This document shows positions 15,178 to 47,270 of a stretch of 64,000 bases of DNA, piece after piece. Position numbers and translations under genes: made by a program. Positions within the stretch are counted from its first letter, which is position 1; each line of letters opens with the position of its first letter. The DNA is from Isurus oxyrinchus (taxonomy: Eukaryota). The DNA is taken from assembly GCA_026770705.1 (NCBI GenBank), contig JANJGN010000121.1, positions 248,001 to 312,000 on the forward strand. Direction: 5' to 3'. Below the pieces are notes generated by a model that did no database searches, was not told where the DNA came from, and saw only the letters and a list, made by a program, of their open reading frames with translations.

Positions 15178-15609
15178 TGTCTGCTCCCAGATATTTCCTC
15201 AGCATCTAACTCTGAAGTTCTGAAAGAGAAAAGAGTTAATGAGACTTCACCTCTTGTCCGAATGCTCTCGAGAGATCAGAACTGCTTTTAGACAATATCT
15301 TCACAGACTAATTTGATTCTCTGTGGGATGATAGGTGTTCTGCAGAGAGTTACAAGCCTTTCAGAAAGAAAAACAATGAAGGACTTGCATTTCTATAGCA
15401 CCTTTCACCACCTCAGGATGCCCCAAGCTCATGTCCCTTGAGCTAGAAAGATGTTCTGTACAACAGACTTGAGTCTCACACCCAGATCTCAATAATCAGT
15501 AGAAATCTTTCAAAGGCATCGATCATTGGAATCTGTCTTTATAAAGTCACAACATCAACAAAGGACGGTGTTGGTCGTGGAAGTGAATTCCAATCGTTCT
15601 GTTACTTAC

Positions 15610-15750
15610 CCAGGACCTGTCCGACTGCTCGCCTGGGGAGGAACTGCCCACACGCTCTGCTTGGGCTGAATGACCTCTTCCTGTGCTGCTCCCTCTGTGT
15701 ATTTAATTAGAAAGAGCTGATGTGTCTCAGTGAGTCAAAATGAGGAAGCT
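15610..15750 (-). promoter_or_regulatory. Putative 5'UTR exon (15610-15694) and promoter with AP-1 (TGAGTCA) and ETS/PU.1-like (GAGGAAG) sites
   Basis: TGG|gtaagt donor at 15610; motifs at 15731-15748; block repeated upstream of every leader exon. Confidence 0.5.
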
Positions 15751-19657: not shown

Positions 19658-19906
19658 TCAGTTTCGCTTGAATCTGATCTGTGCGTATTCCGTCTTCTCT
19701 TCCCTGTGGACAGACCCATCACCACTGGGCACCCTGAAGACTTGGGGATTGGCATAGAGAAGGTCGTTGGGATTGTCAGGGATTCCATGTCCAGCATTGC
19801 CTCCCACTGCACCTTCAGAGAGACCCCGGGGAACTGGGGTCTCCCCCTCGCTAGTTGTGTCTCTGGTTGTGTTCCGGGGCTCAGTAATCAGCACGTTCTG
19901 TTTACC
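19658..19906 (-). CDS. Gene B terminal exon with LLYANP (degenerate ITIM) and TEYAQI (ITSM-like)
   Basis: tttctctgtag acceptor, phase 0; ...DLLYANPQVFRVPSGDGSVHREEKTEYAQIRFKRN* has the motif spacing typical of CD33-related Siglec tails. Confidence 0.85.
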   Translation of the reverse strand, partial: GKQNVLITEPRNTTRDTTSEGETPVPRGLSEGAVGGNAGHGIPDNPNDLLYANPQVFRVPSGDGSVHREEKTEYAQIRFKRN

Positions 19907-22900
19907 CTACAGAGAAATGGAAACAGAAGACATCCTCACATCAATTACTGGCACTGATAGGGTTAAATTATTGTGCAGCCTGGTTAGTGTCAGTCGTGTC
20001 TCAGTTGGTTTAACTCTCTCTCTCATATCATATAAAAGAAACCACCTATGGCAGGGCAGCACTCCTTCAGTACTGACCCCCGACAGCGCAGCACTCCCTC
20101 AGTACTGACCCTCTGTCAGTCTCGGACTCCCTCAGTACTGACCCCCGACAGCGCAGCACTCCCTCAGTACTGACCCTCTGTCAGTCTCGGACTCCCTCAG
20201 TACTGACCCCTGACAGCGCAGCACTCCCTCAGGACTGACCCTCTGTCAGTCTCGCACTCCCTCGGTAATGGCTCTGGTGAGTGCCGGCTTGGATTCTGCA
20301 CTCAGGTGCCTGGTGTGAGGCTCAATAACATGCACCTTGTAATCAGAGAGAGGATGAGAGGGAAGAGAAAGAGAGAAAGGGATAGAGATAGGGTGTTATT
20401 AATCTATTAACGTATGTAATGTAATTGGAAATTGTCTTTTTAAACAGGGGTTTAGTCTGTGGGTGTGTCTGTGAGTGTTTTAATTGGATTAAAGCCAGCC
20501 AGTCTGGGTACTTTGATGTCAAGTAGTTTTGAGATGTAAACAAAGAGGTAAAGGGGTAATTTGCATCTTTAAACAGAGCACTCAATGTCTGGGAGTGAAA
20601 TCTTAAACGAAGCAATGTTTATATTACTAATAAAATTGATACGATGAAGGGTGGAGTTCAAAGGTCCTGATGATACAATGAGAATTTACATTCAAAGAGA
20701 AGCATTGGGTATAACTTGAGCAGTTTTTTGTGTGCAGAGCAGAGGCTTGTAACATCAAAGCAGCTGTAAGCCTACACCTGTCTGCAAAGGAACCAAAGTG
20801 AAAGGAACCTCATTTGGAATTTGTGAGGTGAAAATGCTTTGCTGGAATCTGCTTAAAGTCTATGTGTTGTCTTAGAGGAGATTAGTTTGGGAATTTGTTA
20901 AAGTTATGATAATACTAGTTTGTAGCCATGTGCATATGTTTAACTTGTGTTAATTAATAAATGTCTCATGTAGATTGATATAAAACCATCTCGAGAACTG
21001 GTGGTCTTATTCCTGAATTTAGAGCTGCATCTCAAACATTCCACTGGGAAATATAGGTTATGACAGTTGTTTAAAGTTTCCCTCTGGGATTTGAAACAAC
21101 AGCCTTTAACAGTTGCTGTGTCATAACAGAGAGACAGCATGATACTGAACCATTGCTGACTCCACAGATACAAATCAGTGGGTGACTGGGCTGGGAATCT
21201 GGGACATGTGTTGTCTACACACTGAGATTGAAGCTTTGGAGTGAGTGTAAACAGCTCCTGTACCTGGTGCTTCACAGAGAGTGGACTGGGAATCAATGCA
21301 ATGTCACTGGTCCCTGAAACTCTCTCCGCCATTGCTGTCTTTCTCCTGCAATAACACAATATCACACTGTGGTTATCATATAGCAGAGAGTCAGTGCAGC
21401 ACAGACACAGAGCTCACTGTAACCTTACACCAATGACTGGACTGTCTCTTTAAATCACTTCTGCACAAAGCACAGAATCAAGAAGCTTGACACCATCCAG
21501 GACAAAGCAGCCCGATTGATCTACACCCCATCCACCACATTAAACATTCACTCCCTCCACAACGAACACACAGTGGCAGCAGTGTGTGTACCATCTACAA
21601 GATGCACTGCAGCAACTCAGCAAGGCTCCTTCGTCAGCACCTTCCAAACCCACGACCTCTACCATCTAGAAGGACAAGGGCAGCAGACACATGGGAACGC
21701 CACCACCTGGAAGTTCCCCTCCAAGTCACTCACCATCCTGACTTGGAAATATATCATCGTTCCTTCACTGTCACTGGGTCAAAATCCTGGAACTCCCTCT
21801 CTAACAGCACTGTGGGTGTACCTACACCACATGGACTGCAGCGGGTCAAGAAGGCAGCTCACTACCTCCTTCTCAAGGGGCAATTAGAGATGGGCAATTT
21901 AATAACGGCCTCACCAGTGACAGTCACATTCGATGAAAGAATTTAAAATCTCACAGCTCAGGAGGAAGCCACTCAGCCCATCGTGCCTGTGCTGGCCCTT
22001 TGTAAAAACTGTCCAAATAGTCCTAAGCAAATGTTTATATTAAAATCAAGTTAAATCTTCAGACTTACTTTCTCACACAGATGAAGATGAAGATTCCAGC
22101 CAGGAAAACACTCAACATGATCCCAGCCGTGAACAATCCTACTGTCCATTTACTGGAGTCTCTACCTGTAAAAACAGTCATTAATTACTGCACTACAGGT
22201 TTACAATGATGCTCCGATGTATCTCGAGAAGCGATACACTCACTCAGTGTTTAAATACTCATTCTCGGGCAATGCTGACATTTATTGTCCATCCCTAGTT
22301 TCCCCTTGAGAAGGTGGTGGGGGGTCTTCCTCCTGAACCACTGGTTTGTCCCAAACTGGGAGACCAGTTCAGAGGGCAGGTAAGAGTTAACCATGTTGGT
22401 GTTTGAGACTGGAGTCACATATACACCCAGACCTGTTAAAATGGACAGGTTTCCCTCCCTTAAGATCATTAGTGACCCATATTATATATGTAATTTATAT
22501 ATATATGTATCAACTACCCTCCCTAAAATAATCAATTATCACCTCAATTTCATGCTGTTGTTTGTGGGATCTTGCTGTGCACAAATCAGCTGTTGCGTTT
22601 CTTACATGATGACAGTGAGCTCACTTTGAAACTGCTTCACTGGTTATCGAGCGTTTTGGGAATTCCTAAGTATTTTATCAACGCAAGTCTTATATTTTGA
22701 TTTAATCCATGTAACATTTATATATAATATTTATCAATGTGATCCCTATAGCATAAATTTATAATATTTATCAATATAATCTATGTAACATTTATATATA
22801 ATTTTTATCCATTTAATTTCTGTAATATTTATATATAATGTTTCTCGATCTAATCCATGTAACATTTATATATAACATTTATCAATGTAATATATGTAAC

Positions 22901-25900
22901 ATTTATATCTAATATTTATTCATTTAATCTGTGTAACATTTGTATTTAATTTTTCTCAATGTAATCTATGTAAAATTTATATATAATATTTATCCATTTA
23001 ATCTATGTAACATTTATATATAATATTTATCAATTTAATCTATGTAACATTTATATATAATATTTATCAATGTAATCTATGTAACATTTATATATAATAT
23101 TTATCCATTTAATCTATGTAACATTTATATATAATATTTATCCATTTAATCTATGTAACATTTATATATAATATTTATCCATTTAATCTATGTAACATTT
23201 ATATATAATGTTTCTCAATGCAATCGATGTAACATTTATATATATTTATCAATATAATCCATGTAACATTTATATATAATATTTATCAATATAATCCATG
23301 TAACATTTATATATAATATTTATCAATGTAATCTATGTAACATTTATATATAATTTTTCTTGATGTAATCTATGTAACATTTATATATAATATTTATCAA
23401 TGTAATCTATGTAACATTTATATATAATGTTTCTCGATGTAATCTATGTAATGTTTATATATAATATTTAGTCGTTTGGGGGGAGAACCTGAGTATTGCT
23501 GAGAAAGGACATTTTGTCAAAGCTTTCTGTCTTGCACCCAATGAAGCAGCTTATCTGGGGGAGAGGGTTCCAGATTTCCACTCCCCTTTGTGTGAAGAAG
23601 TGCTTCCTGACATCACCCCCTGAACGGCCTGGCTCCAATTTGACCAAGTGTTGCCATTGTCACATGAGGTCAGGAGATTCAAAGCTTGGTCAAATGGGTA
23701 AGTTGTACACAGCATCTTAGAGGAGGTAGAGAGAGAGGTGGAGAGGTTGAGGGAGGGAATTCTCGAGTTTAGGGATCAAACCAGCTGAGTGGAGATCGAT
23801 CCTGAGCGAGTCTCTCACCTTTGACCCACAGATACATCTTGAACATGGCTTCCCCATGTGGGTTTTGAACCGAGCAGGATGCCATCACTCCCCCCTCATC
23901 CTGGGGTCTCATCAGGGTGAGGGAACCAGTCACCAGATGCCCATCTCTGACCTGCCATGACACAAAACCTCCGTGTGTTTGGTTACCACTGATGTTGGCA
24001 CTGGGCAGGTGCCAGGTGAGGTCTCCGGGTGGGTTGGAGTTGGCCACACAGATGCAGGTGACCCCCTCTGATCTCCGAGTGCACTCCGACTGCTGGGAAA
24101 TCTCCGGCTTATCTGAGGAGGGAAGGACAACAATGAGACAACGTCATAGCAAAGTTAGAGCGTAAGATAGAATCTTCACACTGAAACACTCATTCCTGCC
24201 TTTGTTACCTCCGCACTCAACTATCCCAACACTCTCCTGCCCGACCTCCCATCTTCCACTCTCCGTCAACATCAGCTCATCCCAAACTCTGCTGTCCCCA
24301 TGTCCTAACTCACACCGAGTCCCGTTCACACATCACTCCCTGTTGGTCACTGAGCTACACTGGCTCCCGGTCCGACAATGCCACAATTTTAAAATTTACA
24401 TCGTTTCAAATCCCTCCTTACCCCCTCCCTATCTCTGTTACCTCCTCCAGCCCCTACAACCCTCCCTATCTCTGTTACCTCCTCCAGACCCTTCAACCCT
24501 CCCTATCTCTGTAACCTCCTCCAGCCCCTTCAACCCTCCCTATCTCTGTAACCTCCTCCAGCCCCTACAACCCTCCCTATCTCTGTAACCTCCTCCAGCC
24601 CCTACAACCTTCCTTATCTCTGTAAACTCCTCCAGCCCCTACAACCGTCCCTATCTCTGTAACCTCCTCCAGCCTCTACAACCCTCCGAGATCTCTGTGC
24701 ACCTCCAATTCCAGCCTCTTGACCTTCCCCCGATTCCTATCGCTCCACCATTGGCAGCCGTGCCTTCAGGTGCCTGGATCCTAACTTCTGGAATTCCCTC
24801 CCTCATTTCTCACCTCCTTCGGACAAAATCTGACCACCATCAAAAGCATCTTCCCTTCACCCCCACCCCGTTGGCATTCCAGGGATCATTCCCTCCAGGA
24901 CACCCTGGTCCACTCCTCCATCACCCCTAGCACCTCAACCCTCTCCGATGACATCTTCCCATGCATTTGCAGAAGGTGTAACACCTGCCCCTTTACTTCC
25001 TCCCCCCTCACTGTCCAATGAGCCAAACACTCCTTCCAGGTGAAGCAGCGCTTCATGCAGACTTCCTTCAATTTAATCTACTGCATTCACTGCTCCCAGT
25101 GTGGTCTCCTCTACATTGGAGACACCAAACGCAGACTGGGTGACCACTTTTCAGAATACCTTCGGTCTGTCTGCAAGCATGACCCAGACCTCCCTGTCGC
25201 TTGCCATTTTAACACCCTACCCTGCTCTCATGCCCACATGTCCGTCCTTGGCTTGCTGCATTGTTCCAGTGAAGCCCAACGCAAACTGGAGGAACAGCAC
25301 CTCATCTTCCGACCAGGCACTTTACAGCCTTCCGGTCTGAATATTGAGTTCAACAATTTCTGGTCATGAACTCTCTCCTCGATCTTCACTGCTTTTTGAT
25401 CCCTTTTTTATGTATTCATTTTAATTGTTTTATTTGTTAACTGTTTTCCACTTATTTTTATTATTATTATTTGAAATTCATTTCCATTTTTATTGATTGT
25501 TTTATCCACAGATTTTAGTCTATTTTCGATCTTTATTCCCTCCACCGTCCCCTCCCCCTGCCACACCCCCACGAGGGCCATCTGTCTCTTTCCAGAGTGC
25601 TTACCCTGGTCCGCCCATTATCACACTCTGCTTAATGTCACCATTAGCACCTCCTTTATCCAGTACCACCACTGTTAACAACCCTTTGACCTTGTGTTTA
25701 TGACATCTTCCACAATCTCTCCATTGCCTCCACCTATCGCTGGTTTTCTATCCAGCTCCACCTGTCCCATCGCCCCTCCTTAGACAGGATATATTTCACC
25801 ACATGTCTACTTCCCTTTAGCTCTGAAGAGGAGTCATACGGACTCGAAACGCTAACCCTGTCTTTCTCTCCACAGATGCTGCCAGATGGTCAGAATCAGC

Positions 25901-28900
25901 TGGATGGACAGAAAGACCAATGAGTGGCTTAGATCAAGAGGAGATGTTCAGCAATTAAAAGGGTTGTTCAGGACAGTTAGAGAGAGAAAGTTCATCAAGT
26001 ACGGAGATTGGAAACGAAGACCTGACAGCCTTGTCCTCACAACCATTGAAGGAGAAACTGAGACCAAAAACAGAAAGGGAGAGGAAAAATTGGATGTGTG
26101 GATAACGTGGACTGAGCGAGGATTGAAGAAAACTGGATTAAAAACAACACGATCCCAATGGCTCCACGGAGACCACGGAGACAACAAACAAACAAATGTA
26201 TCTCCACACTCACATTCCACAGTGATGGTTATGAACCCCTCCACTGCTCCATGTTCATTCTCTGCCACACACTGATAGTCACAACCTGGGCCCCCTCTGC
26301 CCTATCAGGTTGGGATAAACAATCCCAAGGGTCAATACAAGGAAGAGCTCTCCCTGGTCAATATCACTCATTAGAAAAGGACCAGTTTTGTCTTCAACCC
26401 AGTGAAGTTTGTGGAATCTTGCTCTGCACATTGTATCCTAATACCGCTAATAGAAATGAAGGATGTCCATACTTACATTGTACAGTCAGTACGAGGGTCC
26501 GCTCCGATGAAACAGATGGATATCTCACTCTGCAGCTGAGAGTGTGTCCGTGGTGTTTGAGTGATGGGATCAGGGTCAGAACAGAAGTATAGGTCAGAGT
26601 GACACCATGCTGAGTTACAGTGTTTGAGACTGATCCAGGTACGTCAGTGGGAGTGTCCCAGGTTAAGACAGGTGCTGCTGTTCCATTGCACGTTGTGTTG
26701 AAGGTGCAGCTTACATCCACACGCTTTCCTGCAATAATTTCAGCAGGGAATATCGTGGGTTTATTTGTGAAATCTAACAGACAGAGAATGGATCCTTTTA
26801 GAGAAATATAACGTGAAGCATCAGTTCAAATAGAAACCACAGTCCCACAAGAGAAAGCACTTTTACAAGGATGATATCAGAACTGAGAGGTTACAATGAT
26901 CAGGAGAGAATTTCCTATTTTCCGACTTAGTGGAGTTTCTGTCACTCAGATGAATTCACTTCCACTTTGAGACAATTGAATTGACAATCCCAGGTGAGGG
27001 TGGGGGAGCAGCTCACAGTTCCTGACACACTGGCTTGTTACTTTCTCCGAAATCTGCCAGATTTAAATTCTATCCTGTTCCCAGCAGGAGAGAATCCATT
27101 TGAACCAATCACTGAACCGGCATCTAAAGCAGGTGATCAGGTTATTGATCACATCACCTTTTCTGGGAGATTCCTGTGAACAAATTGGCTATTGTGTTTC
27201 CCAGATTACAACAAGGGTTTCATTTCAAGAATTATTTCATTGGTTGTGAATCCAATTGCGATGTACAGAGGTGTTGAAAGGCGCTATAGAAATGCGAATC
27301 TATCTTTTGTCGAAATGTAAGACTGTCATACAGGGTTAGGGAGATCGATGGGAGTGGATAACCTGATAACATTGATGTACACGGTCAATACATTTAATCA
27401 TTGATATTAAAGTGAGTATTAGATGTTGCTTTCAGATTGAACTGGAAGCTATCACCAGGATATTGAGAATCAGACAGTATGTTATAATAAGCTGTGTTTT
27501 GTGTTAATATGTAAACGTCACAGTTTGTGTTATTTCCCATTGAGTGTTGGATGTGAATTGTTGAGTAATTATAACACAGCACTTATCAGAAACGTGAAGC
27601 TGGGTTACAGGGTAATAGTTATGGCTCGGACCATTGTCAAATTCTATTCTGAAAAAATAAGGTCCTGCATCTTCCCGTCTGATGTTGTTTATAATCAGGG
27701 AACAGTCGCCATCTTTCAGGTCTCCAGACAGCCGGGTCCGATGGTGGAACCGTGGTAACTCGTGACTGTGATCCTTGGAGTGAAAGGCTATAGACCATTT
27801 AGACCATTTGTTCTGTATGTACCTCCTCATATACCAGATTCCGACATGTGTTTTCTTTACCAAATGTGATGGGTAACTGTAATGACATGGATCTGTACAC
27901 ACGAACCTTCCTGCGCTGTCACCTCTCATGGAGTGTCACCTTTCCACTCTTGTGACAGTCCAACTGGGGAGAGAAATCTCAATATTTAACTCTGGATGGT
28001 TTGTGGATCCACTGAACCCGATATTTACAGATGAGGCTGAATTGGGGGGATGGTCAATACTGAGGAGAATGGCAACAAATTATTTTGGCAGGAAGAATAG
28101 AAAAACAGGATATTATTTAAATGGAGACAGGCTGCAGAATGCAGTACAGAGGGATCTGGGTGTCCTTGTACATGAATCACAGAAAGTCAGCATTCAGGAA
28201 CACCACGGAATGAGGAAGGCAAGTGGAATGTTGGCCTTTATTGCAAAGGGATGGAGTATAAAAGGAGGGAAGTCTTGCAACAGCTGCACAGGGTGAGATT
28301 GTATCAGGAGCAGTGTGTACAGTTCTGGTCTCCTTACTTAGGGAGGGATAGACTTGCATTGGAGGCAGTTCAGAGAAGCTTCACTGGGCTGATTCCTGGG
28401 ATTAAAGGGTTTGTCCTGTGAGGAAATGTTGAGCAGGTTGGGCCTGTATCCATTGGAGTTTAGAAGAATGAGGGGTGACCTTATTGAAACATATCCGATT
28501 CCGAGGGGGCTTGACAGGGTGGATGCTGGGAGGATGTTTCCCCCTCGTGGGGGAATCTAGAACCAGGGAGCACAGTTTCGGAATGAGGGCTCTCCCATTT
28601 AAGACTGAGATGAGGAGGAATTTCCTCTCTCAGAGGGGCGCTAGCCTGTGGAATTCTCTTCCCCAGAGAGCAGTGGAGTCTGGGCCATTGAATAGACTCA
28701 AGGCTGAGTGAGGCAGGTTTTTGATCGACAAGGGAGTCAAGGGTTTGGGGGACAGGCAGGAAAATGGAGTTAAGGCCACAACCAGATCAGTGAGAGCAGG
28801 CTCGAGGGGCCGAATGGCCTGCTCCTGTCCCTATTTCTTATGTTCCTACATTCTTACCTTCTTAAAATATTAAAGCTGCAGAATAAACATGCAAGTGACT

Positions 28901-31900
28901 GACCCGCTCGACCCACCTTCCATCTGGGGGGCCCATGGGGAGGACCCTTCCTGAGCCAGATCCACCAGCCAACATGGTCTGGATCCGAGAACAGGAGACA
29001 CGGGGGGGAGTGACTAACAGGCTCCTTGTGACAGGCCCCGTCTGTCCAATGGCTGGCTTTCAGCTGCCAAGGCCAGAGTGGTCCTTGCTAAAACCAGCTC
29101 AGGACAGGTCAGGACCCCTGTGCAGACCCCCTCCAGCGCTGCAGCCTCTGTACAAACCCCTCATGCGCTTATGGAGAGACACAAACAAGGCTGCACATTA
29201 CCAAGGAGAATCCCCTCTACGGACTAAGGGGCTGACTCATCACCCTAAACTCAGCAAATGAGGAGGCTCTCGCTCGGTATCGGGGCTTGGCATTCGCTCA
29301 ATAAAAATAATCAAATTACATTTTGGTCAGAAATCTAAGGAGGTTGTACATTCCCTCAAAAATAAGATTCGAGCTGGGGTCGCGGGTCAAAGGGCAACAA
29401 CTTATATTTACACAACAACTTTAACATGACAAATCATCCCAAGGTGCTACACAGGAGCGTCATAAAACAAAGTATGTCACCCAGACACATGTGGAGATAT
29501 TAGCGACAGCTGGCCAGAAGAGGTCGGTGTTATGGAGAATCTTCAAAGAGGGATGAAATGGATAGTGAGAGAGAGAGAGATAGAGATATAGAGAGAGAGA
29601 GACAGAGAGAGTGAGAGAGAGGGATGGAGAGGGGCTGAGGGAGGGTATTACAGAGCTCGGGCCCCAGGCAGCTGAAGGCACGGCCGCCGATGTTGTAGTG
29701 ATGGGACCGGGGGATGGTCAAGAGGCTGGAATTGGATGAGCACAGAGACCTCAGTGGGTTGGAGGGGCTGGAGGAGGTTACAGAGAGAAGGAAGGTTGTA
29801 GTGACTGGGGCAGGTTACAGGGGCAGGGAAAGTTGTCGGGACTGGAGCAGGCTACAGTGATAGGGAAGCTTTTAGGGGCAGGAGGAAGTTACAGAAATAG
29901 GGAGGGTTGTAGTGGCTGGAGGAGGTTGCAGAGATTGGTAGGTTTGTTGGGCAGGATCAATTTGCAGATATAGGGAAGCGTTAGATACTTCAAGAGGTTA
30001 CAGAGAATGGGATGGTTGTAGGTACTGGAGGAGGACGAGGAGATTACAGGGATAGTGAGGAAACAAAGATGAAAATTTGGACATTGAGACTTTGCTTGAC
30101 CAGGAGCCAGTCTTGGTCATCGAGCAGAGCAGGTGATAAGGGAATGGGACTTGGTGTGAGTAAGGACGTGGTCAGCAGTTTTGGATGGCCTCAAGTTTAT
30201 GCAGTGCAGAGCGTGTTGTGGAACAGTCGAGTCTGGAGGTAATGAAGGCGTGGATGACGGTTTCAGCAGCAGATGAGCTGAGACAGGGTGATGTCGTGCG
30301 ATGTTACGCAGGTGGAAATAGACGGTGTTAGTGAGGGCGCAGATATGAGGCCGGAAGCTCATCTCAGGATCAAATGGGACAACAAAGCTGTGAACAGATT
30401 GGCTTCAATCTCAGAGAGCTGCCAGGGAGAGGAATGGAGTTGGTAGCGAGGGAACAGAGTTTGGAGCGGGGAATGAAGGCAATGGCTTCAGTCTTTCCAA
30501 TATTTAATTGGAGGGAATTTCTGCCCATCCAGTACTGGATGTCGGATAAGCAGCCTGATAATTTAGCAGCAGTGGAGGAGTCGAGAGAGGTGGTGGTGAG
30601 GTAGAGCTGGGGATCCTCAGTGGACAGGTGAAAACTAACACTGTTCAGATGATGCTGCAAAGCCATTGCAAGTGATTCTCTGGCTACGATGAGATGGATA
30701 AGAATGGAGCCAGGGGAGAGCAGACCCACCCAGCTGGACGACAGTGGAGAGGTGTTGGAGGAGGATGGTGTGGTCGAGCGTGTCAAAGGCTGCAGACAGA
30801 TCGAGAAGGACGAGGAGGGAAAGTTGACCTTTGTCACAGTCACACAGGATGCCATTTGTGACCTTGATAAGAGCTGTTTCAGCACAGTGGCTGGGGTGGG
30901 AACCTGATTGGAGGGATTCAAACATGGAGTTCCGGGAAAGATGGGAACGGATTCGGGAGATGGAAACACGTTCAAGGACTTTGGAGGTGAAAGAGAGGCT
31001 GGAGATGGGACGGGAGATTACGCAGACGAGCAGAAATAGACAAATCATTGCAAATAGTGACACTGGTTAACACGGCCAAAAAACAAGCAAATCAAACATT
31101 ATTATTTCCCATTGAGTGTTGAATGTGAATTGGTGAGTAATTATAACACAGCACTTACCAGAAACCTGAAGCTGGGTTACAGGGGAAACGTTATGGCTCG
31201 GACGATTGCCAAATTTTATCATGAAAAAATAAGATCCTGCATCTTCCCGTCTGATGTTGTTTATAATCAGGGAACAGTCGCCATCTTTCAGGTCTCCAGA
31301 CAGCCGGGTCCGATGGCGGAACCGTGGCAACTCGCGACTGTGACCCTTGGAGTGAAAGGCTATAGACGATTTAGACCATTTGTTCCGTATGTATCTTCTC
31401 ATTTTCCAGATTCCGACCTGTGTTTTCTTTATCAAATCTGATGGATAACTGTAATGACATGGAATCTGTACACACGAACCTTCCTGCGCTGTCACCTCTC
31501 GTGGAGTGTCACCTTTCCACTCTTGTGACAATCCAACTGGGGAGAGAAATATCAATATTTAACTCTGGATGTTTTGTAGATCCACTACACTCGATATCCA
31601 CCCCCTCCATCACTCGGGCACAGTGGCTGCAGTGTGGACCATCTACAGGACACACAATGAACTCCACAAGGTATCACCCCAGATGGAAGAGAATCCTGGA
31701 CACAAAAGCGGAAAAGTTCATTCTACATTGGTTCATGGTCCTCAGGACCCTGTTTCTGCAGAAGCCTGTTCTCCAACAGAACTGAAGTTGGGGACAATGC
31801 ATTTGGAATTCCACTGTCCGGGGCATTGGGTTAACTTGCTGATTTTGTTTTAAATCTAACATCTATTTTTGGTCTGTTGCCTTAAAGGGAGTGTAACTGG

Positions 31901-34900: not shown

Positions 34901-36819
34901 GCAAGGCTTGTGGCAGAAAGGGCCATTGACAGCGGCAGGGCACGAGAGCAAAGGCTGATGCAGCTACAAAGAGCCGTGCGCTGATCCAATCAAAATGTAA
35001 GAGTTAACCACATTGACGTGGAGTCTGGAGTCACATGTCGGCCAGACAATTTTGTTCCCTAAAGGGCACTGGTGAACCAGGTGGGATTTCCAACAATGGT
35101 TTTGTGGTCATCACTAGACTTTGAATTTCATCTTTTTATTAAATTCAAATTCCATCATCTATTATGGCAGGATTTGAACCCATATGCTCAGGACATTACC
35201 CTGGGTCTCTGAATTACTCGTCCAGCAACAATACCACTACACCATCACCTCACCTTATTCCATCACTGACAGAGAGCATGTTTGGTGGGCCAGTAGTGAC
35301 CAATTTCGCTACTCTTACCCATTCTACTCTCTCAGAAACCAGAGGGCAACTTTTAAAACTACAAGAGAAGATAAGGAATGTTCATGATAAAAATGGAGGT
35401 GCAGAGTTGCCAAGTTTACAGTTGGGACAAGTTCACATCCAGCATCCCACAGAAGGTTCATGACCACCAGCCGAGGTGACAAGGATTTGTTCAGAACCAA
35501 GGGCCTATGGAGTCAAACACACAAGGGCACAGCGGTGAGGCGGAACCGAGGATAAATCAGATCCATTCCCGCTCCTATTCCATCGAGGAGAAGATCCCAC
35601 ATGAAATCAGGAACAACATCCAAGGGTGACAATCCCACAGATCACTGTGAGCAGTTAAAGACACCTCCGGACAAGGTAACCAGCACAAGATCTGGGTGGA
35701 CCAGAAGGTTAAATCCAAACTTTAGAGAGTCAAATATTTAACAGTTCCATGCACTTATGTAATTGTCAATAAATATGAACATGATATGAGAAACCGTTTG
35801 TTCCCTGCCCTTCTGAAAGATCCATTCCTGCAGCGGGAGCCTGAAGAGTTACTGATAAGAGATTTAATTTATCGGATTGTGGAATGATCCGGAACTGAAG
35901 GAAGCCATTTGGCCCATCGAGCCTGTGCTGGGCCTTTGAAAGATCTGTCCAATTAGTCCCACTCTCACCTCTGCTCTCTCCTCCACAGCCCTGCAAAATG
36001 TCCCCTTCAAGTATTTATCCAGTTCCCCTTCTGAAAGTTCCTGTTGAATCTGCTTCCACCGCCCTTTCAGGCAGTGAGTCAATGGTCTCTCTCTGAGCTG
36101 CAAAGTGATAAGTTTCAATGAAATATAAACTCTGCAGCAGATCAGAAACAATCATGAGAACTCAGAATATTTGACAGTTTTACACACGGACAGCTTTACC
36201 TCCCTTCTCTCTATCAGTTATCTTGCTCCCTTATTGAAGTATCTAGCAAGGTGAGAATGGACAGGAAGTGTGACACTGAACAGCCTGTCTATTCTAGGAG
36301 CTGCTGTGTTGTCTTCATGGGAAATTCTGACAAAATCAGCAAAAGACACAAAATTTCAGGGCATTGTTATCCGAGTCCCAGCATCAGGATAGACCTCATC
36401 CCCCAGTTGGTGTTCCTGATTCTCTAGTCAGCGGATCGCTCCCCTGTCACTGGCTGAACTACACTGACTCCCAGTCCAGCAATGACTCAAATTTCAAATT
36501 CTCATCATTGAGTTCTACCCCACCATCCCCCCTCTACACTCTCTATCTGTGTAACCTCCTCCAACCCTAAATCCCTCTGAGATCTCTGCACTCCTCCAAT
36601 TCTACTGTCAGACAGGGAGTCAGTGTATATCAGTGAGCACAGGGGTGATGGATGAATGGGACTTGGTGTCAGTTTGTACACTGGCTCACTGCTGAATCGG
36701 TTCCCAATCACACTCAATAAGAATGATCTTTTACAAAGACTATTAGCCATAAAACTGTCCGAGCTGACGACGTTATTACCTTCGAGAAGTGACAGGAGGA
36801 AGTAGGATTTCCCGATCAT
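19658..36819 (-). CDS. Gene B (spliced, complete, about 478 aa): Siglec-like receptor, L-V(Arg-less)-C-C2(MAG d5-like)-TM-cytoplasmic tail
   Basis: Exons 36780-36819, 31159-31536, 26477-26773, 23819-24112, 22069-22165, 21264-21345, 19658-19906 are phase-compatible and sum to 1437 nt (479 codons including the stop). Confidence 0.8.
20055..20270. repeat. 33-bp minisatellite with a 66-bp dimer structure
   Basis: Alternating gacagcgcag and gtcagtctcg units. Confidence 0.88.
20416..21128 (+). mobile_element. Solo-LTR-like element
   Basis: TG...CA ends; absent from the paralogous gene A intron; similar to 16267-17095. Confidence 0.45.
21264..21345 (-). CDS. Gene B cytoplasmic exon 1 (RKTAMAERVSGTSDIALIPSPLSVKHQ)
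   Basis: Phase 2 in and phase 0 out; paralog of 469-550. Confidence 0.75.
21475..21950 (+). mobile_element. Non-LTR retrotransposon 3' fragment
   Basis: Same family as 52935-53990 (aagctcgacaccatccagga ... cttctcaaggggcaatta). Confidence 0.6.
22069..22165 (-). CDS. Gene B transmembrane exon
   Basis: Identical to the gene A TM exon. Confidence 0.88.
22700..23470. repeat. 37-bp AT-rich minisatellite (aatctatgtaacatttatatataatatttatccattt)
   Basis: About 20 units; a single unit sits at the paralogous position in gene A (1843-1877). Confidence 0.92.
23819..24112 (-). CDS. Gene B membrane-proximal Ig exon, MAG domain 5 / Siglec-5,-10 last-domain type
   Basis: KPEISQQSECTRRSEGVTCICVANSNPPGDLTWHLP..VTGSLTL..SCSVQNPHG has the C-x7-C-x-C pattern of these domains; 294 nt, phase 1-1. 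Confidence 0.85.
24415..24700. repeat. 37-bp tandem repeat (tatctctgtaacctcctccagcccctacaaccctccc)
   Basis: About 7 units; degenerate reverse-complement arrays at 29750-30050 and 57880-58360. Confidence 0.85.
24830..25885 (+). mobile_element. Penelope-like retroelement 3' part (GIY-YIG endonuclease and terminal repeat)
   Basis: NLIYCIHCSQCGLLYIGDTKRRL..HFNT..EQHLIF..GTLQPSGLN; terminal ctctgaagaggagtcatacggactcgaaac repeat also at 10735-10865, 43775-43905 and 48642-48858. Confidence 0.85.
26214..26285 (-). pseudogene. 3' remnant of a C2 exon in gene B
   Basis: DYQCVAENEHGAVEGFITITVE plus donor; the rest of the exon is missing. Confidence 0.7.
26477..26773 (-). CDS. Gene B Siglec domain-2 C-set exon
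   Basis: 297 nt, near-identical to 10185-10481. Confidence 0.9.
27587..27963 (-). pseudogene. Gene B second V-set exon, inactivated
   Basis: TGA stop at 27926-27928, 1-nt deletion near 27890 (377 nt versus 378), donor GT changed to AT at 27585-27586; retains YFFRIE. Confidence 0.88.
28020..28850 (+). mobile_element. CR1-like LINE 3' fragment
   Basis: Degenerate FADDTKLGG, QRDLGVLVH and FKTEMRRNFLSQR motifs; copy at 56477-57270. Confidence 0.85.
30060..31020 (-). mobile_element. L2-like LINE RT fragment
   Basis: RPISSLSFTSKVLE..ETALIKVTN..LLDLSAAFDTLDH; copy at 58370-59330. Confidence 0.85.
31159..31536 (-). CDS. Gene B V-set exon lacking the essential Arg (YFFMIK)
   Basis: Intact 378-nt phase 1-1 exon with the Siglec Cys pattern; Arg replaced by Met. 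Confidence 0.9.
31760..33455 (+). mobile_element. LTR-like sequences (two adjacent, ending in ...taaca); copy at 60200-61892
   Basis: Non-coding, AATAAA signals, TG..CA-type ends; family not identified. Confidence 0.35.
33644..35720 (+). mobile_element. Degenerate Gypsy-type LTR retrotransposon (PBS-like site, gag with zinc knuckles, integrase-end remnant)
   Basis: aca|tggtgatcagtggtgg PBS-like site; MSTKFPSLNW..; CGRCG..CPA..CKACGRKGH; frameshifted. Confidence 0.75.
36780..36819 (-). CDS. Gene B signal-peptide exon (MIGKSYFLLSLLE)
   Basis: Paralog of 15138-15177; G|gtaat donor. Confidence 0.78.
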
Positions 36820-37269: not shown

Positions 37270-37410
37270 CCAGTACCTGTCCGACTGCTCGCCTGGGGAG
37301 GAACTGCCCACACGCTCTGCTTGGGCTGAATGACCTCTTACTGTGCTGCTCCCTCTGTGTGTTTAATTAGAAAGGGTGGATGTGTCACTGTGAGACAAAA
37401 TGAGGAAGTG
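37270..37410 (-). promoter_or_regulatory. Gene B putative 5'UTR exon (37270-37354) and PU.1-like site AAAATGAGGAAGTG
   Basis: Copy of the 15610-15750 block. Confidence 0.5.
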
Positions 37411-37629
37411 GGTAATCAGTGAGAAGATCGAGGATGTTTTGTGCTCTCAGCAAAACGTTTACCATGTGTGATCTGTCAGCTCATATTTGGGCAGCTGTAG
37501 TCATGAAGCTTCTCCATTGGCTCCGTGGGATTAGACTCCTCCCCCTCACCACTGAGGCTGAAACTCAGGCGATAGAGTCCCCAACACAGGTCTCGGGCCG
37601 TATGATACATTTCAACGACCCCTGTTATC

Positions 37630-39520
37630 ATTACGGAGGGAGTGCTGCACTGTCAGCGGGACTCTACTGTGGGAGTGCTGCACTGTGGGAGGGTCAGTAA
37701 TGTGGGAGTGCTGCACTATCAGAGGGTCAGTAATGAGGGAGTGCTGCACTGTCAGAGGGTCAGTAATGTGGGATTGCTGCGCTGTCAGAGGGTCAGTAAT
37801 GAGGGAGTGCTGCACTGTCAGAGGGTCAGTAATGTGGGAGTGCTGCACTGTCAGAGGGTCAGTAATGAGGGAGTGCTGCACGGTCAGAGGTTCAGTACTG
37901 AGGGAGTGCTGCACTGTCAGATGGTCAGTACTGAGGGAGTGCTGCACTGTCGGAGGTTCAGTACTGAGGGAGTGCTGCACTGTCACCGGGTCAGTAATGA
38001 GGGAATGCTGCACTGTCAGATTGTCTGCACTGAGTGAGTTCCGCACAGTCAGAGGGTCAGTATTGAGGGGGTGCCGGACTGTGGGAGGGTTAGTACTGAG
38101 GTAGAGTGGAGTGTGAGAAGATATCCTTTCATGGCAAAGTTTAACTGGAATTTATTTAAACAGAATTCTTGTACTGTGTGTTATTGCAAAAGAAAGGATT
38201 TGAGGAACTAAGTCTTGTTCCCGTAAGCCTAAAAATAATTTTCATCGATTTCAATGATTTAGCATTGAAACCTCCCTCTTTGTGCACCAGTCTTGATTGA
38301 AACAACTCGCACAGCACTGTGGGAGGGTGAGTACTGAGGGAGTGCTGCACTGTGGGAGGGTGAGTACTGAGGGAGTGCTGCACTGTGGGAGGGTGAGTAC
38401 TGAGGGAGTGCTGCACTGTGGGAGGGGGAGTACTGAGGGAGTGCTGCACTGTGGGAGGGGGAGTACTGAGGGAGTGCTGCACTGTGGGAGGGTGTGTACA
38501 GAGGGAGTGCTGCACTGTGGGAGGGTGAGAATTGAGGGAGTGCTGCACTGTGGGAAGGTGAGTACAGAGGGATGGCTGCACTGTGGGAGGGTGAGTACTG
38601 AGGGAGTGCTGCACTGTCAGTGCGTCTGTACCGAGGGAGTGCTGCACTGTCAGAGGGTCGGAAATGAGGGAGTGCTGCACTGTCAGAGGGTCAGTAATGA
38701 GGGAGTGCTGCACTGTCAGAGGGTCAGTAATGAGGGAGGGCTGCACTATCAGAGGGTAAGTAATGTGGGAGTGCTGAACTGTCGGCGGGTCTGTATTGAA
38801 TGAGTTCCGCATAGTCAGAGGGTCAGTATTGAGGGGGTGCCGGACTGTGGGAGGGTTAGTACTGAGGTAGAGCCGAGTGTGAGAAGGTATCCTTTCATGG
38901 CAAAGTTTAACTGGAATTTATTTAAACAGAATTCTTGTACTGTGTGTTATTGCAAAAGAAAGGATTTGAGGAACTAAGTCTTGTTCCCATAAGCCTAAAA
39001 ATAATTTTCACCGATTCAATGATTTAGCATTGAAACCTCCCTCTTTGGGCACCAGTCTTGATTGAATCAACTCGAACAGCACTGTGGGAGGGTGAGTACT
39101 GAGGGAGTGCTGCACTGTAGGAGGGTGAGTACTGAGGGAGTGCTGCACTGTGGGAGGGTTAGCACTGAGGGAGTGCTGCACTGTCAGAGAGTCTGTAATG
39201 AGGGAGTGCTGCACTGTCAGAAGGTGTGTACCGTGGGAGTGCTGAACTGTCGGAAGGTCAGTAGTGAGGGAGGGATACAGTGCCAGAGGATCAGTACTGA
39301 GGGAGTGCTGCACTGTGGGTGGATGAGTACTGAGGGAGTGCTGCACTGTCAGATTGTCAGCCATGAGGGTGTGCTGCACTGTCAGAAGGTCAGTGCTGAC
39401 AGGGTGCTGCACTTGAAAAGGGTCAATAATGAGGTAGTGCAGCACTGTCAGAGGGACAGTAATGAGGGAGCGCTGCACTGACCGAGGGTCAGGATTGAGG
39501 AAACGCTGCACTGTCAGTTC
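37630..39520. repeat. Three 33-bp minisatellite blocks with a duplicated ~210-bp spacer
   Basis: Blocks 37630-38100, 38310-38865 and 39075-39520; spacer 38100-38310 repeated at 38865-39075. Confidence 0.92.
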
Positions 39521-40938: not shown

Positions 40939-41078
40939 TCAAACAGTCTGTCGACTTCCTTTCACTGTTTGTCTCTCCCAGACACAGACTCCAGCGATAG
41001 TGATAACCACAGCCACAAGGAATATCACAGCTCGTATTCCCAGGATCAGGATCACGTGCAGAATCTCTCCTCCACTGT
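40939..41078 (-). CDS. Gene C terminal TM exon with intramembrane Arg and a short tail (SGGEILHVILILGIRAVIFLVAVVITIAGVCVWERQTVKGSRQTV*)
   Basis: Strong ttttttctgtgtgttctctag acceptor; the phase-1 reading gives a long hydrophobic segment with one Arg and a 12-aa Tyr-free tail. Confidence 0.8.
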
Positions 41079-42750
41079 CTAGAGAACACACAGAAAAAAA
41101 TCATCACTGACTCTCCGCTTTCAATCTCTCACTCTGGCTGAACAATCAAGCTTCATATCACTGCAACATTTGCTGTAATATTGACCCATCCACTGGGATT
41201 CAATGTGGAATGAATGTTTTCATTGTAAACACTCTAAGAGTGGACAATCGGAACTTTCCCCTTGGCGTGGAACATTGGTGAGAATGGATCATTGTGCTGT
41301 TGGACTCCCTGTCCAATGTTTCTCTCCATCGCTGTGTACAGGATTGTGCTGTAGAAAATTCTGGAAACGTTTAGTGCAGGGTGGAAATCCATCTCGGATG
41401 CGTGTGCGAATCGGGCAGGATCGAGATGGACTCCCCCACGGACTTACACCCCCCGCTTAATAAACAGTTCCAGTCTTTACCCAGAGAGAGGGGAGAATGT
41501 GGAACTCACTCCCACAGGGAGTGGTCGAGGTGAACAGTATCGATGTATTTAAGGGGCAGGAGGGTCGGTAACCAGAGGGACACAGATTGACCAACTGGAG
41601 GGGGAGATGAGGAGAATTTGTTTTGACAGAGCGAGTTGTTGTGATCTGGAAGGTTCTGCCTGAAAGGGTGGTGGAAGCAGATTCAATAGGAACTTTCAAA
41701 AGGGAAATTGGATAAACACTTGAAGGAGGAAGATGGGGTAAAGTGGAGTGGTGGTTAGTGGATCTGATTGGATAGAACATTGAAAGACCTGGCACAGCCT
41801 CAATGGGCTGAATGGCCTCCTCCTGTGCTGTATCATTCTCCGCTTCCATGATCTCTCCCCCAGTCAGTAACCACTCCAGATCCCTCTTGAAGGTGACAGA
41901 GAGACAGCAACGACCACACCCACTGACAGCACATTCCCGAGGATCACTACTCTCTGGGAAAAGATGAACTCCCCAACATCCAGCCTATTCCTGCTTCCCA
42001 GAGAGTGTAAACCCTTCAGGGAGGCGCTGAGGAAGTTTTCAATAAAATGAATTATCAAATCTATCATTTGAGTAATAATTTAATTCTGATGAACTCACAG
42101 CTTATGTAGCAAACTGGGAAGTGGGAGTTGCTTGAAAAGCTGGGAAACACAAGGATTAAGTGCTACAATGCCACCACTGGTGGGAGACTGTAACTACAGC
42201 GTGACGTTTACATAGGCAGTCATCATTATAAACAGGGGCATTGGACATACTGGGAAATATGTGCACTGGAAAGGTGAGTAAATGATGTAAGATTTTCACC
42301 AGCAGGAATTCTCGAACTAAACCTCTCCACCTCTCTCTTACTCTCAGATACACAAACAAAATCACACAGAATCAGATAAGGAGGAGTTGGGGCCGGTGAT
42401 TGTTCGAAGGGTTAGCTTTCAGGAAGCTTCTTAAAGGGAGAGAGAGAGTTGGAGAGGCAGAGAGTATCTGTGAGTGTCTCTATGCATCTGACTGTCTGTA
42501 ATAGACTTTGTAATTTCCATATTCTTCCATAAACATGATTGGGAACACAAATCCCAGAATTCAGGCCAACTCTCCAGTGCAGTACTCAGGTAAGCCACAG
42601 GGGAGTGTGTGCTAGTGTGTTTGTTCGTGAGTGTGTCTTTGTAATTGCTCATACATGTGTGTCTGCATGTGTCTATTTAGTTCTGTATATTTGTGTGTGT
42701 TTGTGTAATGTTTGAATCTGAGAGAGATGTTGATGTCTGTGTACACTCAC

Positions 42751-42903
42751 GTTCCACAGTGATGGTTATGAACCCCTCCACTGCTCCATGTTCATTCTCT
42801 GCCACACACTGATAGTCTCCAGTGTCCCGATATGTAATGGGAGGAATCACCAACCACAGCTCATTGTTGGAACTTGTTCTGTTCATTTGGACATTAAGAT
42901 GTC
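42751..42903 (-). pseudogene. 5'-truncated C2 exon of gene C
   Basis: HLNVQMNRT..DYQCVAE..TVE with donor; 5' half and acceptor replaced by unrelated DNA. Confidence 0.8.
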
Positions 42904-43226
42904 AGGGCAGGAATCAAGAAGCCCGTTCGCAGGATTACCAACAGAAAGTGAACCACAATTTATACTTAATGGGAAGAGAGTGCTGATTGGTTGGCAAGTG
43001 GTCTCTGATAGGTGGACGTGTTGCCATGGAGAATGGTGTGTGCGAGATGTAAACTTTAGACAGCTTGTCTCTTTATTCAGCAATAATCAAATAAAGATCA
43101 ATTAACTTCAATCGACTGTGAAGCACTTTGAGAGGTCTGAGAATGTGGACACTGAGAACGGGCTGCACTGTCAGAGGGTCAGCGCTGAGGGAGTGCTGAT
43201 GTAGAATGAAAGGTGTATGTACTTAC

Positions 43227-43523
43227 CTTGCACAGTTAGTACGAGGGTCCGCTCCGATGAAACAGATGGATATCTCACTCTGCAGCTGAGATTGTGTCCG
43301 TGGTGTTTGAGTGATGGGATCAGGGTCAGAACAGAAATATAGGTCAGAGTGACACCATGCTGAGTTACAGTGTTTGAGACTGATCCAGGTACGTCAGTGG
43401 GAGTGTCCCAGGTTAAGACAGGTGCTGCTGTTCCATTGCACGTTGTGTTGATGGTGCAGCTTACATCCACATGCTTTCCTGCAATAATTTCAGCAGGGAA
43501 TATCGTGGGTTTATCTGTGAAAT
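43227..43523 (-). CDS. Gene C Siglec domain-2 C-set exon (intact)
   Basis: 297 nt, open, canonical splice sites. Confidence 0.8.
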
Positions 43524-44382
43524 CTAACAGACAGAGAATGGATCCTTTTAGAGAAATATAACGTGAAGCATCAGTTCAAATAGAAATCACAGTCCCACAA
43601 GAGAAAGCACTTTTACAAGGATGATATCAGAACTGAGAGGTTACAATGATCAGGAAAGATTTTCTTGCTCTTTGGCAGTAGTGTTTCTGTCTCTCAGCTT
43701 AATACACGTTCACTCCGAGACATGTGAATTGAGAACACTGGATGAGAGAAGAGGCTCAGACCAGAGATTGGAGTTAAAAGCAGAATACTGCGGATGCTGG
43801 AAATCTGAAACAAAAACAAAAATTGCTGGAAAGACTCAGCAGGTCTGACAGTATCAGTGGAGAGGAAGACAGGGTTAACGTTTCGAGTCCGTATGACTCT
43901 TCATCAGACCAGAGGTTTGAGTTCACTGGCTTCTCATTTCCTCAGTGATCTGGGTGTTTTATCACCTTGTGGTTTGTTGGATCTTGCTGTGCACAAACTG
44001 CCTGCTGTGTTTAACATCTGTGACCACAATTCAGGAATAATTTCATTGGCTGTGAAGGGATTTGGATCCTCCTGAGGTGGTAAATTGCGCTACAGAAATG
44101 CACATCTTTCTTTTATCGATACGTCAGACTTTTAAACAGGACAGGAGAGATTGATGGGTGTGGATAACCTGATAATACAGTTAATGCTTTTCATCATTGA
44201 TATTAAAGTGAGTATTAGAGGTTGCTTTAGGACTGAACTGGAAGCTATCACCAGGTTATTGAGAATCAGACAGTGTGTTATAATAAGCTGTGTTTTGTGT
44301 TAATATGTAAACGTCACAGTTTGTGTTATTTCCCATTGAGTGTTGGATGTGAATTGTTGAGTAATTATAACACAGCACTTAC

Positions 44383-44413
44383 CAGAAACGTGAAGCTGGG
44401 TTACAGGGTAATA
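44383..44413 (-). pseudogene. V-exon 3' stump (YPVTQLHVS) fused to the upstream intron
   Basis: Flanks match gene A 11341-11360 and 11718 onward; about 345 bp including the acceptor are missing. Confidence 0.85.
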
Positions 44414-45104
44414 TAAATGTCAATATTTAACTCTGGATGGTTTGTCAATCCACTAGACTTGATATCCACTCCCTCCATCACTGGGGCACAGTGGCTGCAA
44501 TGTGGACTAACTACAGGACACACAAGGAACTCCCCAAGGTTTCACAATGGATGGAAGAGAATCCTGGACACAGGAGTGGACAAGTTCATTCTACATTGGC
44601 TCATGGTCCTCAGGACCCTGTTTAGTGAAGCCAGTCTTCCACCCAACACAGTGTCTACAAGACACACAGGGAAACTGTGTAAACATCTCATCTCTCTACA
44701 CCGACTGGTTTGGCTTCGGTTTAACTTTCAGTTATTTTACTTCCTTATTGTGGTTGCTATGGTGAAACTGTGCAGGAAGTGTGAGGGCTGGACTCTCTGT
44801 CTATTCTGACTGCAGCTGTGATGTGGTCGTGGTGTTTCTCAGTAAAATGAAACCCTCTGATCTCCTCCATCGCCGAGGTTTAGGGAGTGAATTCCAGAGC
44901 TCAGGCCCCAGGCAGCTGAAGGCACGGCCGCCAGTATTGGAGTGATGGGAATCGGGGGATGGTCAAGAGGCCGGAATTGGAGTAACACAGAGATCTGGGA
45001 AGTTGTTTGGTTGAGTTGCAGGACGTTACAGAGATAAAGAGATAAGAATGATCTTTTACAAAAACTGTTAAACATAAATCTGTCCATACTGACAATGATA
45101 TTAC

Positions 45105-45144
45105 CTTGGAGAAGTGACAGGAGGAAGTAAGATTTCCCGATCAT
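45105..45144 (-). CDS. Gene C proximal signal-peptide exon (MIGKSYFLLSLLQ)
   Basis: Paralog of the other leader exons, intact donor. Confidence 0.7.
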
Positions 45145-45594
45145 TGTCCACTCCCAGATATTCCATCCACTTCTCACTCTCAAGCTGTGAAAGAGAAAAG
45201 AGTTAATGAGACTTCACCTATTGTCCGACAGCTTTCAAGAGATCAGAACAGCTTTTAGACAATATCTTCACAGAATAATTTGATTCTCTGTGGGATGATA
45301 GGTGATCTGCAGAGAGTTACAAGGCTTTAAGAAAGAAAAACAATGAAGGATTTGCATTTCTATCGCAGCTTTCACCTCCTCAGGATGGCCCAAAGCTCAT
45401 GTCTCTGCAGTTCCCTCATCCCTTGAGCTAGAAAGATGTTCTGTACAACAGACTTGAGCCTCACACCCAGATCTCAATAATCAGTAGAAATCTTTCAAAG
45501 GCATCAATCATTGGAATCTGTCTTTATAAAGTCACAACATCAACAAAGGACGGTGTTGGTGGTGGAAGTGAATTCCAATCGTTCCGTTACTTAC

Positions 45595-45736
45595 CCAGTA
45601 CCTGTCCGACTGCTCGCCTGGGGAGGAACTGCCCACACGCTCTGCTTGGGCTGAATGACCTCTTCCTGTGCTGCCCCCTCTGTGTATTTAGTGAGAAAGG
45701 GTTGATGTGTCTCTGTGAGACAAAATGAGGAAGTTG
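45595..45736 (-). promoter_or_regulatory. Putative 5'UTR exon / promoter block copy
   Basis: Copy of 15610-15750 with GAGGAAGT. Confidence 0.45.
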
Positions 45737-45954
45737 GATCAAAGTAACAGAGCAGCTCATGTTTTGAGATGTTGGTGAACTTTGTGTCCTGACCCTGTGG
45801 TGATATTTCTGCTCACAGGTGGACAGTCAATGACCAGGAGTTTCTCCTGTGGGTCAGTGGGTTTCACAGCCAAATTCAGGGGGTCAGAATGTTGTGGGAT
45901 TCAAGACCCGATTCAGGGGACGTCTGCCCCACAGAGTAGACTGAAACTCCCCAG

Positions 45955-46165
45955 TGTCAGTACTGAGCAAGTGCTGCACTGTCGGATGGTCATTACTGAG
46001 CGAGTGTTGCACTATTGTAAGGTCAGTACTGAGGGAGATCTCCACTGTTTGAGGGTCAGTACTGAGGGAGTGCTGCACTGTCAGAGGGACATTAATCAGG
46101 GAGTGCTGCAATGTTGGAGGATCAGTACTGAGGGAGTGCTGCACTGTTGGAGGGTCAGTAGTAAG
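45955..46165. repeat. 33-bp minisatellite, degenerate
   Basis: About 6 units. Confidence 0.8.
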
Positions 46166-46319
46166 GTGCTGATTTACAAGACAGGACAATGGATTAGGAG
46201 CCCTCAGAACTCCCCCCATTATCACCATCATGAATCACTAATTAGCCTAACATTCCTGTCTGCTCTTCAACACAGCTGATTGGCTAATCTGATTCACTAT
46301 CATTGGTGCACTTTGTATG

Positions 46320-47230: not shown

Positions 47231-47270
47231 CTTGGAGAAGTGACAGGAGGAAGTAAGATTTCCTGATCAT
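47231..47270 (-). CDS. Second (distal or orphan) signal-peptide exon (MIRKSYFLLSLLQ)
   Basis: Intact leader copy with no V exon of its own. Confidence 0.6.

Follow-up and report, generated by a model that had tools for sequence, protein, structure and literature searches.

Why would a Siglec-like V domain stay intact after losing the arginine on which canonical sialic acid binding depends? The question is raised by a stretch of 64,000 nucleotides of the Isurus oxyrinchus genome (contig JANJGN010000121.1, positions 248,001 to 312,000; hereafter the window), which lies in a cluster of shark Siglec-like genes on the minus strand. All window genes and exons given below lie on the minus strand. 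The window contains five V exons, and an earlier note had claimed that in two of them, belonging to genes B and D, the essential Arg was replaced by Met and Thr, respectively. Reading of the codons confirmed this: gene B has ATG at 31220-31222 (context YFF-ATG-ATA-AAA) and gene D has ACG at 59659-59661 (YFF-ACG-ATA-AAA), both in open frames. The three remaining V exons (11342, 27588, 56055) read AGA ATA GAA at the motif.

Two V domains and their genes

The V1 exon of gene B (31159-31536) is 378 nt long and stop-free, with an AG acceptor and a GT donor, and encodes an intact Siglec-type V-set domain with Lys at +2 from the Met and a net charge of +10, including a basic C-C' insert (basic/aromatic segment KMRRYIRNKWSKS, 31367-31405). 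In HMMER alignments the Met is placed opposite the Arg of mouse sialoadhesin 'YNFRFEI' and Siglec-5 'YFFRVE', the essential position being sialoadhesin Arg97. The Pfam V-set and Ig_CD22 models both score above cut-off, and the domain has the fold of Siglecs and their Cys pattern (B-strand CxxxxC, E-strand Cys); in the PDB it is closest, by sequence and by fold, to sialoadhesin, MAG, Siglec-5/7/8 and CD33. An AlphaFold2 model built from a 45-row alignment has a pLDDT of 88, and in Foldseek the top matches of the predicted fold are MAG and sialoadhesin (TM about 0.8). Misfolding, which the earlier note had named as a possible refutation, is thus not supported. Chance and sequencing error as sources of the Arg loss were ruled out by the 58 copies in the assembly and the empty reversed control (see below). 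The canonical Siglec has an F-strand Arg in its N-terminal V domain; the V1 domains of genes B (Met) and D (Thr) do not, and by sequence V1 is classed as Siglec-like (Roman-numeral type) and not as a canonical Siglec V1.

It had also been claimed that this loss abolishes canonical binding. Such an effect is expected for the salt bridge known from Siglec biology (PMC6288428), and binding is abolished by Arg loss in most Siglecs according to PMC12953582. The latter paper, however, limits the claim, because liposome binding by the Siglec-6 mutant R122A is still at about 75%.

Gene B starts with a leader exon at 36780-36819 (MIGKSYFLLSLLE, phase-1 donor) of a type identical to that of annotated shark homologues. 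Downstream of V1 lies a dead V2 exon (27588-27964) with a TGA stop, a 1-nt frameshift (377 nt) and a lost donor GT, in which the Arg codon is retained. It is followed by the first C2-set exon (26477-26773), with the B-C-loop Cys used by Siglecs for the V-C2 disulfide, a C2 exon remnant without acceptor (26215-26280), a membrane-proximal Ig exon (23819-24112), an exon for a neutral transmembrane segment (22069-22165), the first tail exon (21264-21345) and the last exon (19658-19906), which ends in a stop and contains a degenerate ITIM-like LLYANP and an ITSM-like TEYAQI. Compared with the consensus motifs, the proximal LLYANP is not an ITIM and the distal TEYAQI fits an ITSM. Without its two dead pieces the gene comprises 1437 nt in frame and would encode a 478-residue V1-C2-C2-TM-tail receptor lacking any Arg site; gene B alone would be wholly Arg-less because its V2 is dead. 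When 23 tail exons were scanned, the proximal motif was YANP in 18, YANI in three and YANT in two, and TEYAQI was retained in 22 of 23.

Gene D has its leader just outside the window (L001:2261-2332). Its intact V1 exon (59598-59975; net charge +9) precedes an intact V2 exon (56054-56419; net charge -5) that retains the Arg and has an extra B-C-loop Cys (56319-56321). A first C2-set exon (55019-55315), a second C2-type exon (54026-54307), a neutral transmembrane exon (52665-52761) and three tail exons with three Tyr motifs (51772-51856, 51156-51260, 49974-50090) complete the order leader-V1(Thr)-V2(Arg)-C2-C2-TM-tail, all in frame and with proper splice ends. By its sequence, gene D retains a predicted canonical Arg site one tier below V1. 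Leaders were found in the window at 15.1, 36.8, 45.1 and 47.2 kb, and a leader search between the V exons at 59.6 and 56.1 kb and between those at 31.2 and 27.6 kb gave none. The idea that the V exons at 56.1 and 59.6 kb belong to separate genes was rejected, there being no leader in between. Hence the Arg-less exons are not the sole V exons of their genes; both are V1 of tandem-V genes, an architecture that the earlier note had not recognised. The blocks at 27-35 kb and 55.6-63.4 kb are duplicates of each other (91-97%).

Several other features of the window should be mentioned. Gene A (1244-15180), used for comparison, has one Arg-bearing V exon (11342-11707), a first C2 exon, a neutral TM, and seven near-identical C2 repeats plus two fragments. 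A further gene at 40942-45147 has a leader, a V exon deleted save for its last ~40 nt (44378-44419), a C2 and half a C2 exon, a TM exon with an intramembrane Arg and a short tail, and an orphan leader at 47232-47273 has no V exon ahead of the next leader. A copy of a tail exon lies ~450 nt upstream of every leader (15610-15690, 37270-37350, 45595-45672, 47714-47794) and likewise in many fetched loci outside the window; it may be a co-opted 5' exon or a source of read-through gene models. Minisatellites of ~33 nt, plus one of 24 nt, are intronic or intergenic (1-260, 20040-20280, 37600-39520, 45950-46170, 54440-54900; 50150-51100) and result in long spurious ORFs.

Copies, tandem V domains and tails

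An exact 21-nt pattern detected 58 Arg-less exons in the assembly, and none in the reversed control. Thr is encoded in 51 of them (49 ACG, 2 ACA) and Met in seven (ATG). The canonical V pattern, also exact, gave 568 matches. Together the two exact patterns reveal at least 626 Siglec-like V exons, on contigs C52, C71, C121 and others; the repertoire is very large even if halved for possible duplicates. A protein search of the same genome listed 150 of 1040 candidates, and the best 78, which were fetched, comprised 58 exons without and 20 with Arg. All 58 match the Arg-less pattern; since the exact pattern finds an equal number, this set is unfiltered for open frames. Collapsing copies within 0.05, 0.2, 0.5 and 1% leaves 55, 50, 38 and 28 groups, a series that sets bounds on how far alleles or assembly duplicates may inflate the copy number.

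The Arg-less V1 exon is intact in 53 of the 58 cases, and another V exon lies downstream in 57. At least one intact Arg-bearing V follows in 53 genes and only a broken V in three (gene B included), one exon is cut off by the locus edge and one has no further V. Tandem V-V genes with the outer Arg lost are thus represented by gene D and 52 further copies, and Arg is present in all 86 complete non-first V exons. Five loci or pairs (L007/L081, L008/L082, L014/L087, L018/L091, L050) pass from V1-V2 directly to TM, as in basking-shark P0013, and no C2 exon was found in these genes.

The two V domains are also distinguished by their cysteines. Of the 86 non-first V exons, 83 have a Cys in the B-C loop (81 by scoring, 2 by eye), whereas the 81 first V exons that were scored have none (one was unscored); the corresponding counts in other sharks, leaving out three read-through proteins, are 37/49 and 1/85. 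Its position equals that of the Cys of the first C2, which aligns with that of MAG; CD33 C169 is an interdomain Cys of this type (PMC7426717). The partner Cys of V1 (Cys20) is kept in all 58 Arg-less exons. We infer from these positions that V1 and V2 form an evolved unit, probably joined by a Siglec-type interdomain disulfide.

As for the tails of the 58 Arg-less genes, 25 combine a neutral TM with ITIM/ITSM-type motifs and 10 a neutral TM with multiple Tyr; nine have an intramembrane Arg, four an Arg-to-Gln change, two are broken and eight were not reached. The layout of Siglecs (C2-set domains, a single TM, Tyr-based tail motifs or a charged TM) is present, and so is that of paired receptors, with near-identical ectodomains on inhibitory-type versus charged-TM tails (25 versus 9). 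An identical V1 protein is found on the ITIM/ITSM-type gene B and on the Arg-TM gene L005. In loci L120-L123 the intramembrane Arg is changed to Gln in four activating-type TM exons, all with a 369-nt chimeric V1. The activating-type tail of the shark, with its intramembrane Arg, is unlike that of the primate Siglec-5/14 pair. In primates the DAP12-coupling residue is Lys.

Contigs from four putative RNA runs span the leader-V, V-C2, C2-proximal Ig, Ig-TM and TM-tail junctions; the C2-proximal Ig junction skips the remnant, and intron-type ends are found everywhere except at V-C2. These contigs are from paralogues or relatives and contain neither an Arg-less exon nor a V1-V2 joint. No RNA run was listed as containing the sequence; with best shares of 0.29 (putative RNA runs) and 0.40 (other runs), the runs probably come from relatives and carry no weight for or against expression.

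Charge and the order of events

The earlier note had coupled the Arg loss to a highly basic C-C' insertion. The insertion is real: the C-C' segment of gene B V1 is four codons longer than in 366-nt exons, with a net charge of +6 versus 0 and -1. The coupling did not hold, as 14 intact 378-nt exons of this genome and basking-shark P0001 V1/V5 have the basic insert together with Arg. The insert is therefore older than the Arg loss, and its interpretation as compensation for that loss was rejected on the same grounds.

Other changes do accompany the loss. Lys is at +2 in all Arg-less copies, and among the 48 intact 378-nt copies the changes tracking Arg loss are Glu106Lys (48/48), Tyr43Lys (46), Asp108Gly (42) and Asp63Gly (36); His32Asp is the sole one in the opposite charge direction. 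Distinct intact proteins have a net charge of +4 to +12 without Arg versus 0 to +6 with Arg, a comparison between related copies whose P value overstates the difference. The mean net charge of non-first V domains is -3.8. This charge gain tracking Arg loss is consistent with a shift toward anionic ligands. Other Siglec features persist or vary among the 53 intact Arg-less copies: the A-strand Trp5 of Siglec type is retained in all of them, 51 have His nine residues past the Arg position, where most Arg-bearing V2 domains likewise have it, and the G-strand Tyr-Tyr is changed to Val-Ser in 25, including B and D. There is no F-G-loop Trp in Arg-less V1 comparable to that of Siglec-6.

With regard to the substitution itself, Met (ATG) is probably a CpG mutation of Thr (ACG). 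A direct change from AGA to ATG was rejected: it needs two steps, 49 of the 58 codons are ACG, and ATG and ACA can both be understood as CpG products. In a tree of the copies the Met exons mostly cluster, with weak support, and one AGG copy nests among them. This basic V1 (L009:5235-5606) reads AGG (Arg)-Ile-Lys and has lost its donor; it possibly represents a regain of Arg. In five 369-nt exons the Thr-Ile-Lys end is joined to a different front half, and conversion is therefore indicated.

Among 140 V domains in annotated proteins of other sharks and rays, the position is occupied by Arg in 130, Lys in eight, Ser in one and Tyr in one, and by Thr or Met in none. The ten non-Arg domains (Lys/Ser/Tyr; P0033 V1, P0012 V3, P0009, P0023, P0026) are independent losses. 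A search for homologues of the same length returned three proteins, every one with Arg.

Possible roles of the outer domain

The reading that we favour, tentatively and at a little under an even chance, is that the outer V1 is a cationic sensor of some other anionic surface and that the inner V2 still binds sialic acid. Candidate targets of V1 would be a sulfated glycan, a microbial polyanion or an anionic membrane. The older basic/aromatic C-C' insert may have rendered the Arg dispensable; a single Arg-to-Thr change would then have been amplified, with Met derived from Thr at the CpG. Splicing would join V1 to V2, with the Siglec-type interdomain disulfide as a clamp between them, and gene conversion could have spread the Arg-less head over inhibitory-type and adaptor-coupled tails, giving rise to paired receptors. 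The broader proposal, that one shark lineage has put a cationic non-sialic-acid outer domain on 30-60 two-site paired receptors, each reading sialic acid jointly with a second anionic signature, within a cluster that numbers several hundred Siglec-like V exons, is plausible yet rather doubtful.

Such a shift has precedents. Siglec-6 binds membranes via Lys126/Trp127 (PMC12953582, PMC10122656), and array experiments show 6-O-sulfated GAGs as ligands of many human Siglecs (PMC13331776). Siglec-6 resembles the proposed V1 in that basic and aromatic residues of a loop allow it to do partly without the Arg (PMC12953582, PMC10122656); it differs in keeping Arg122 and in having its Lys/Trp pair in the F-G loop, whereas shark V1 is Arg-less with a basic/aromatic patch in C-C'. 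Several observations count against a cationic sensor: the codon-level signals look neutral and the copies are young (see below), V1 has no F-G-loop Trp of the Siglec-6 kind, the insert occurs with Arg and hence is no replacement for it, Trp5 is kept in 53/53 copies as if the old pocket still mattered, and the lack of Thr or Met among the 140 domains of other species means that there is no conservation across species.

The main alternative is that V1 is a passive spacer or cap: binding by V2 freed V1, tandem duplication and conversion multiplied a single Arg-less copy, and just the fold and frame of V1 matter. We consider this possible, leaning to unlikely. The evidence on constraint bears directly on it. 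Broken exons make up 5 of 58 Arg-less versus 16 of 110 other V exons (P 0.33), and the leader is intact in 19 of 23 upstream regions checked. The 48 distinct 378-nt exons, a set unfiltered for open frames, contain no indels, although 4.8 would be expected at the rate seen in 800 nt of flanking intron (P ~0.009). The 39 positions that other sharks conserve show a depletion of replacements (10 versus 56, P 0.003); mutations private to the Arg-less class show no such depletion (7 versus 24, P 0.22), and the conserved-position signal may therefore be imported by gene conversion. Omega is 1.66, not different from 1 (2dlnL 1.7); whole-exon dN/dS was uninformative, and synonymous, nonsynonymous and stop variants number 18/66/4 versus 21.5/62/4.5 expected. 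The copies are young (median divergence 5.4% over about 3.9 kb), and intactness may thus reflect age. The absence of indels speaks against neutral evolution, which the earlier note had set as a test, and the codon-level signals (omega, stops) agree with it; drift is still a candidate. Constraint looks modest, with no frameshifts but with neutral-looking stops and dN/dS; frame and fold of the Arg-less V1 look maintained, and a ligand-driven function is proposed.

A passive role agrees with the omega near 1, the stops at neutral expectation, the undepleted private mutations, the youth of the copies, the small share of Arg-less exons (58 of at least 626) and the resemblance of Met to a CpG mutation. 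It fits poorly with the loss-tracking changes, most of which raise the charge and which map to strands C and F and the F-G loop, with zero indels, and with the position of V1 as the most exposed domain, an unlikely site for a spacer.

A charge-compensated site, in which Lys106 and Lys43 take the carboxylate and V1 has kept its sialoside binding, perhaps for sulfated or polysialylated forms, seems to us improbable. Lys106 (48/48) and Lys43 (46/48) are nearly constant in the intact 378-nt copies and fall in predicted strands F and C, on the same face if the strands alternate regularly, and Trp5 and the His nine past the Arg position are retained as described. Yet Lys at +2 also stands beside Arg in eight V domains of other sharks, the G-strand Tyr-Tyr has become Val-Ser in 25/53 copies, and, as noted above from PMC12953582, Arg loss abolishes binding in most Siglecs. 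Escape from sialic-acid-mimicking pathogens, suggested in the earlier note and meaning that Arg was dropped so that sialylated microbes miss inhibitory receptors, is very improbable: this explanation has been put forward for human Siglec-XII and, more broadly, for Arg mutations (PMC13358205, PMC6288428), paired tails suit an arms race and V1 might shield V2, but 53 of the 58 genes retain the V2 Arg, the genome still has at least 568 canonical V exons, and nine of the Arg-less heads are on activating-type tails, where escape yields no gain.

Arg loss as such is known from human Siglec-XII and ape Siglec-5/14 (PMC6288428, PMC13358205); the scale of the Arg-less amplification and the charge remodelling are new. 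Human Siglec-XII (SIGLEC12) resembles the shark receptors in having two V-set domains, a lost N-terminal Arg (R122C) and an inhibitory-type tail (PMC6288428). Unlike them, it is a single gene heading for pseudogenisation with sialic-acid binding wholly lost, whereas in the shark the inner V keeps its Arg and the head is amplified to 28-58 copies, strongly basic, and placed on three tail types. Convergence is likelier than orthology, because tandem V domains are widespread in sharks and rays. In great-ape Siglec-5/14, as in the shark, Arg loss is common to an inhibitory and an activating receptor (PMC6288428) and the paired heads undergo conversion (PMC13358205), but there is one V per chain, one pair, and no second Arg-bearing V. 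The annotated tandem-V proteins of sharks and rays (basking P0001, white P0011/P0022) share the leader MIGKSYFLLSLLQ, the tails and the position-specific Cys; their V domains are 60-80% identical, with two to seven in tandem, and the basic insert is present in basking shark. Among annotated proteins, the nearest homologues come from basking shark (80%) and white shark (75%). In a literature covering few subscription papers we found no studies of shark or cartilaginous-fish Siglecs, which receive a passing mention in PMC8455134, and the literature searched gave no match for 'arginine-independent' Siglecs.

The Arg-less Siglecs known from primates occur one gene at a time and are often interpreted as genes on their way out. 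The Arg-less head of this shark has been copied dozens of times, in frame and recharged, onto brake- and trigger-type tails, and it stands over a domain that carries Arg. If V1 binds something, it would follow that a Siglec is able to change the class of its ligand and that two signals can be combined by a single chain; if it drifts, the locus still exemplifies birth-and-death evolution, in a very large cluster that has apparently not been described. Copies with Arg, Thr or Met that are otherwise nearly identical, some with the basic insert and some lacking it, form a natural series for probing what Arg-less domains bind.
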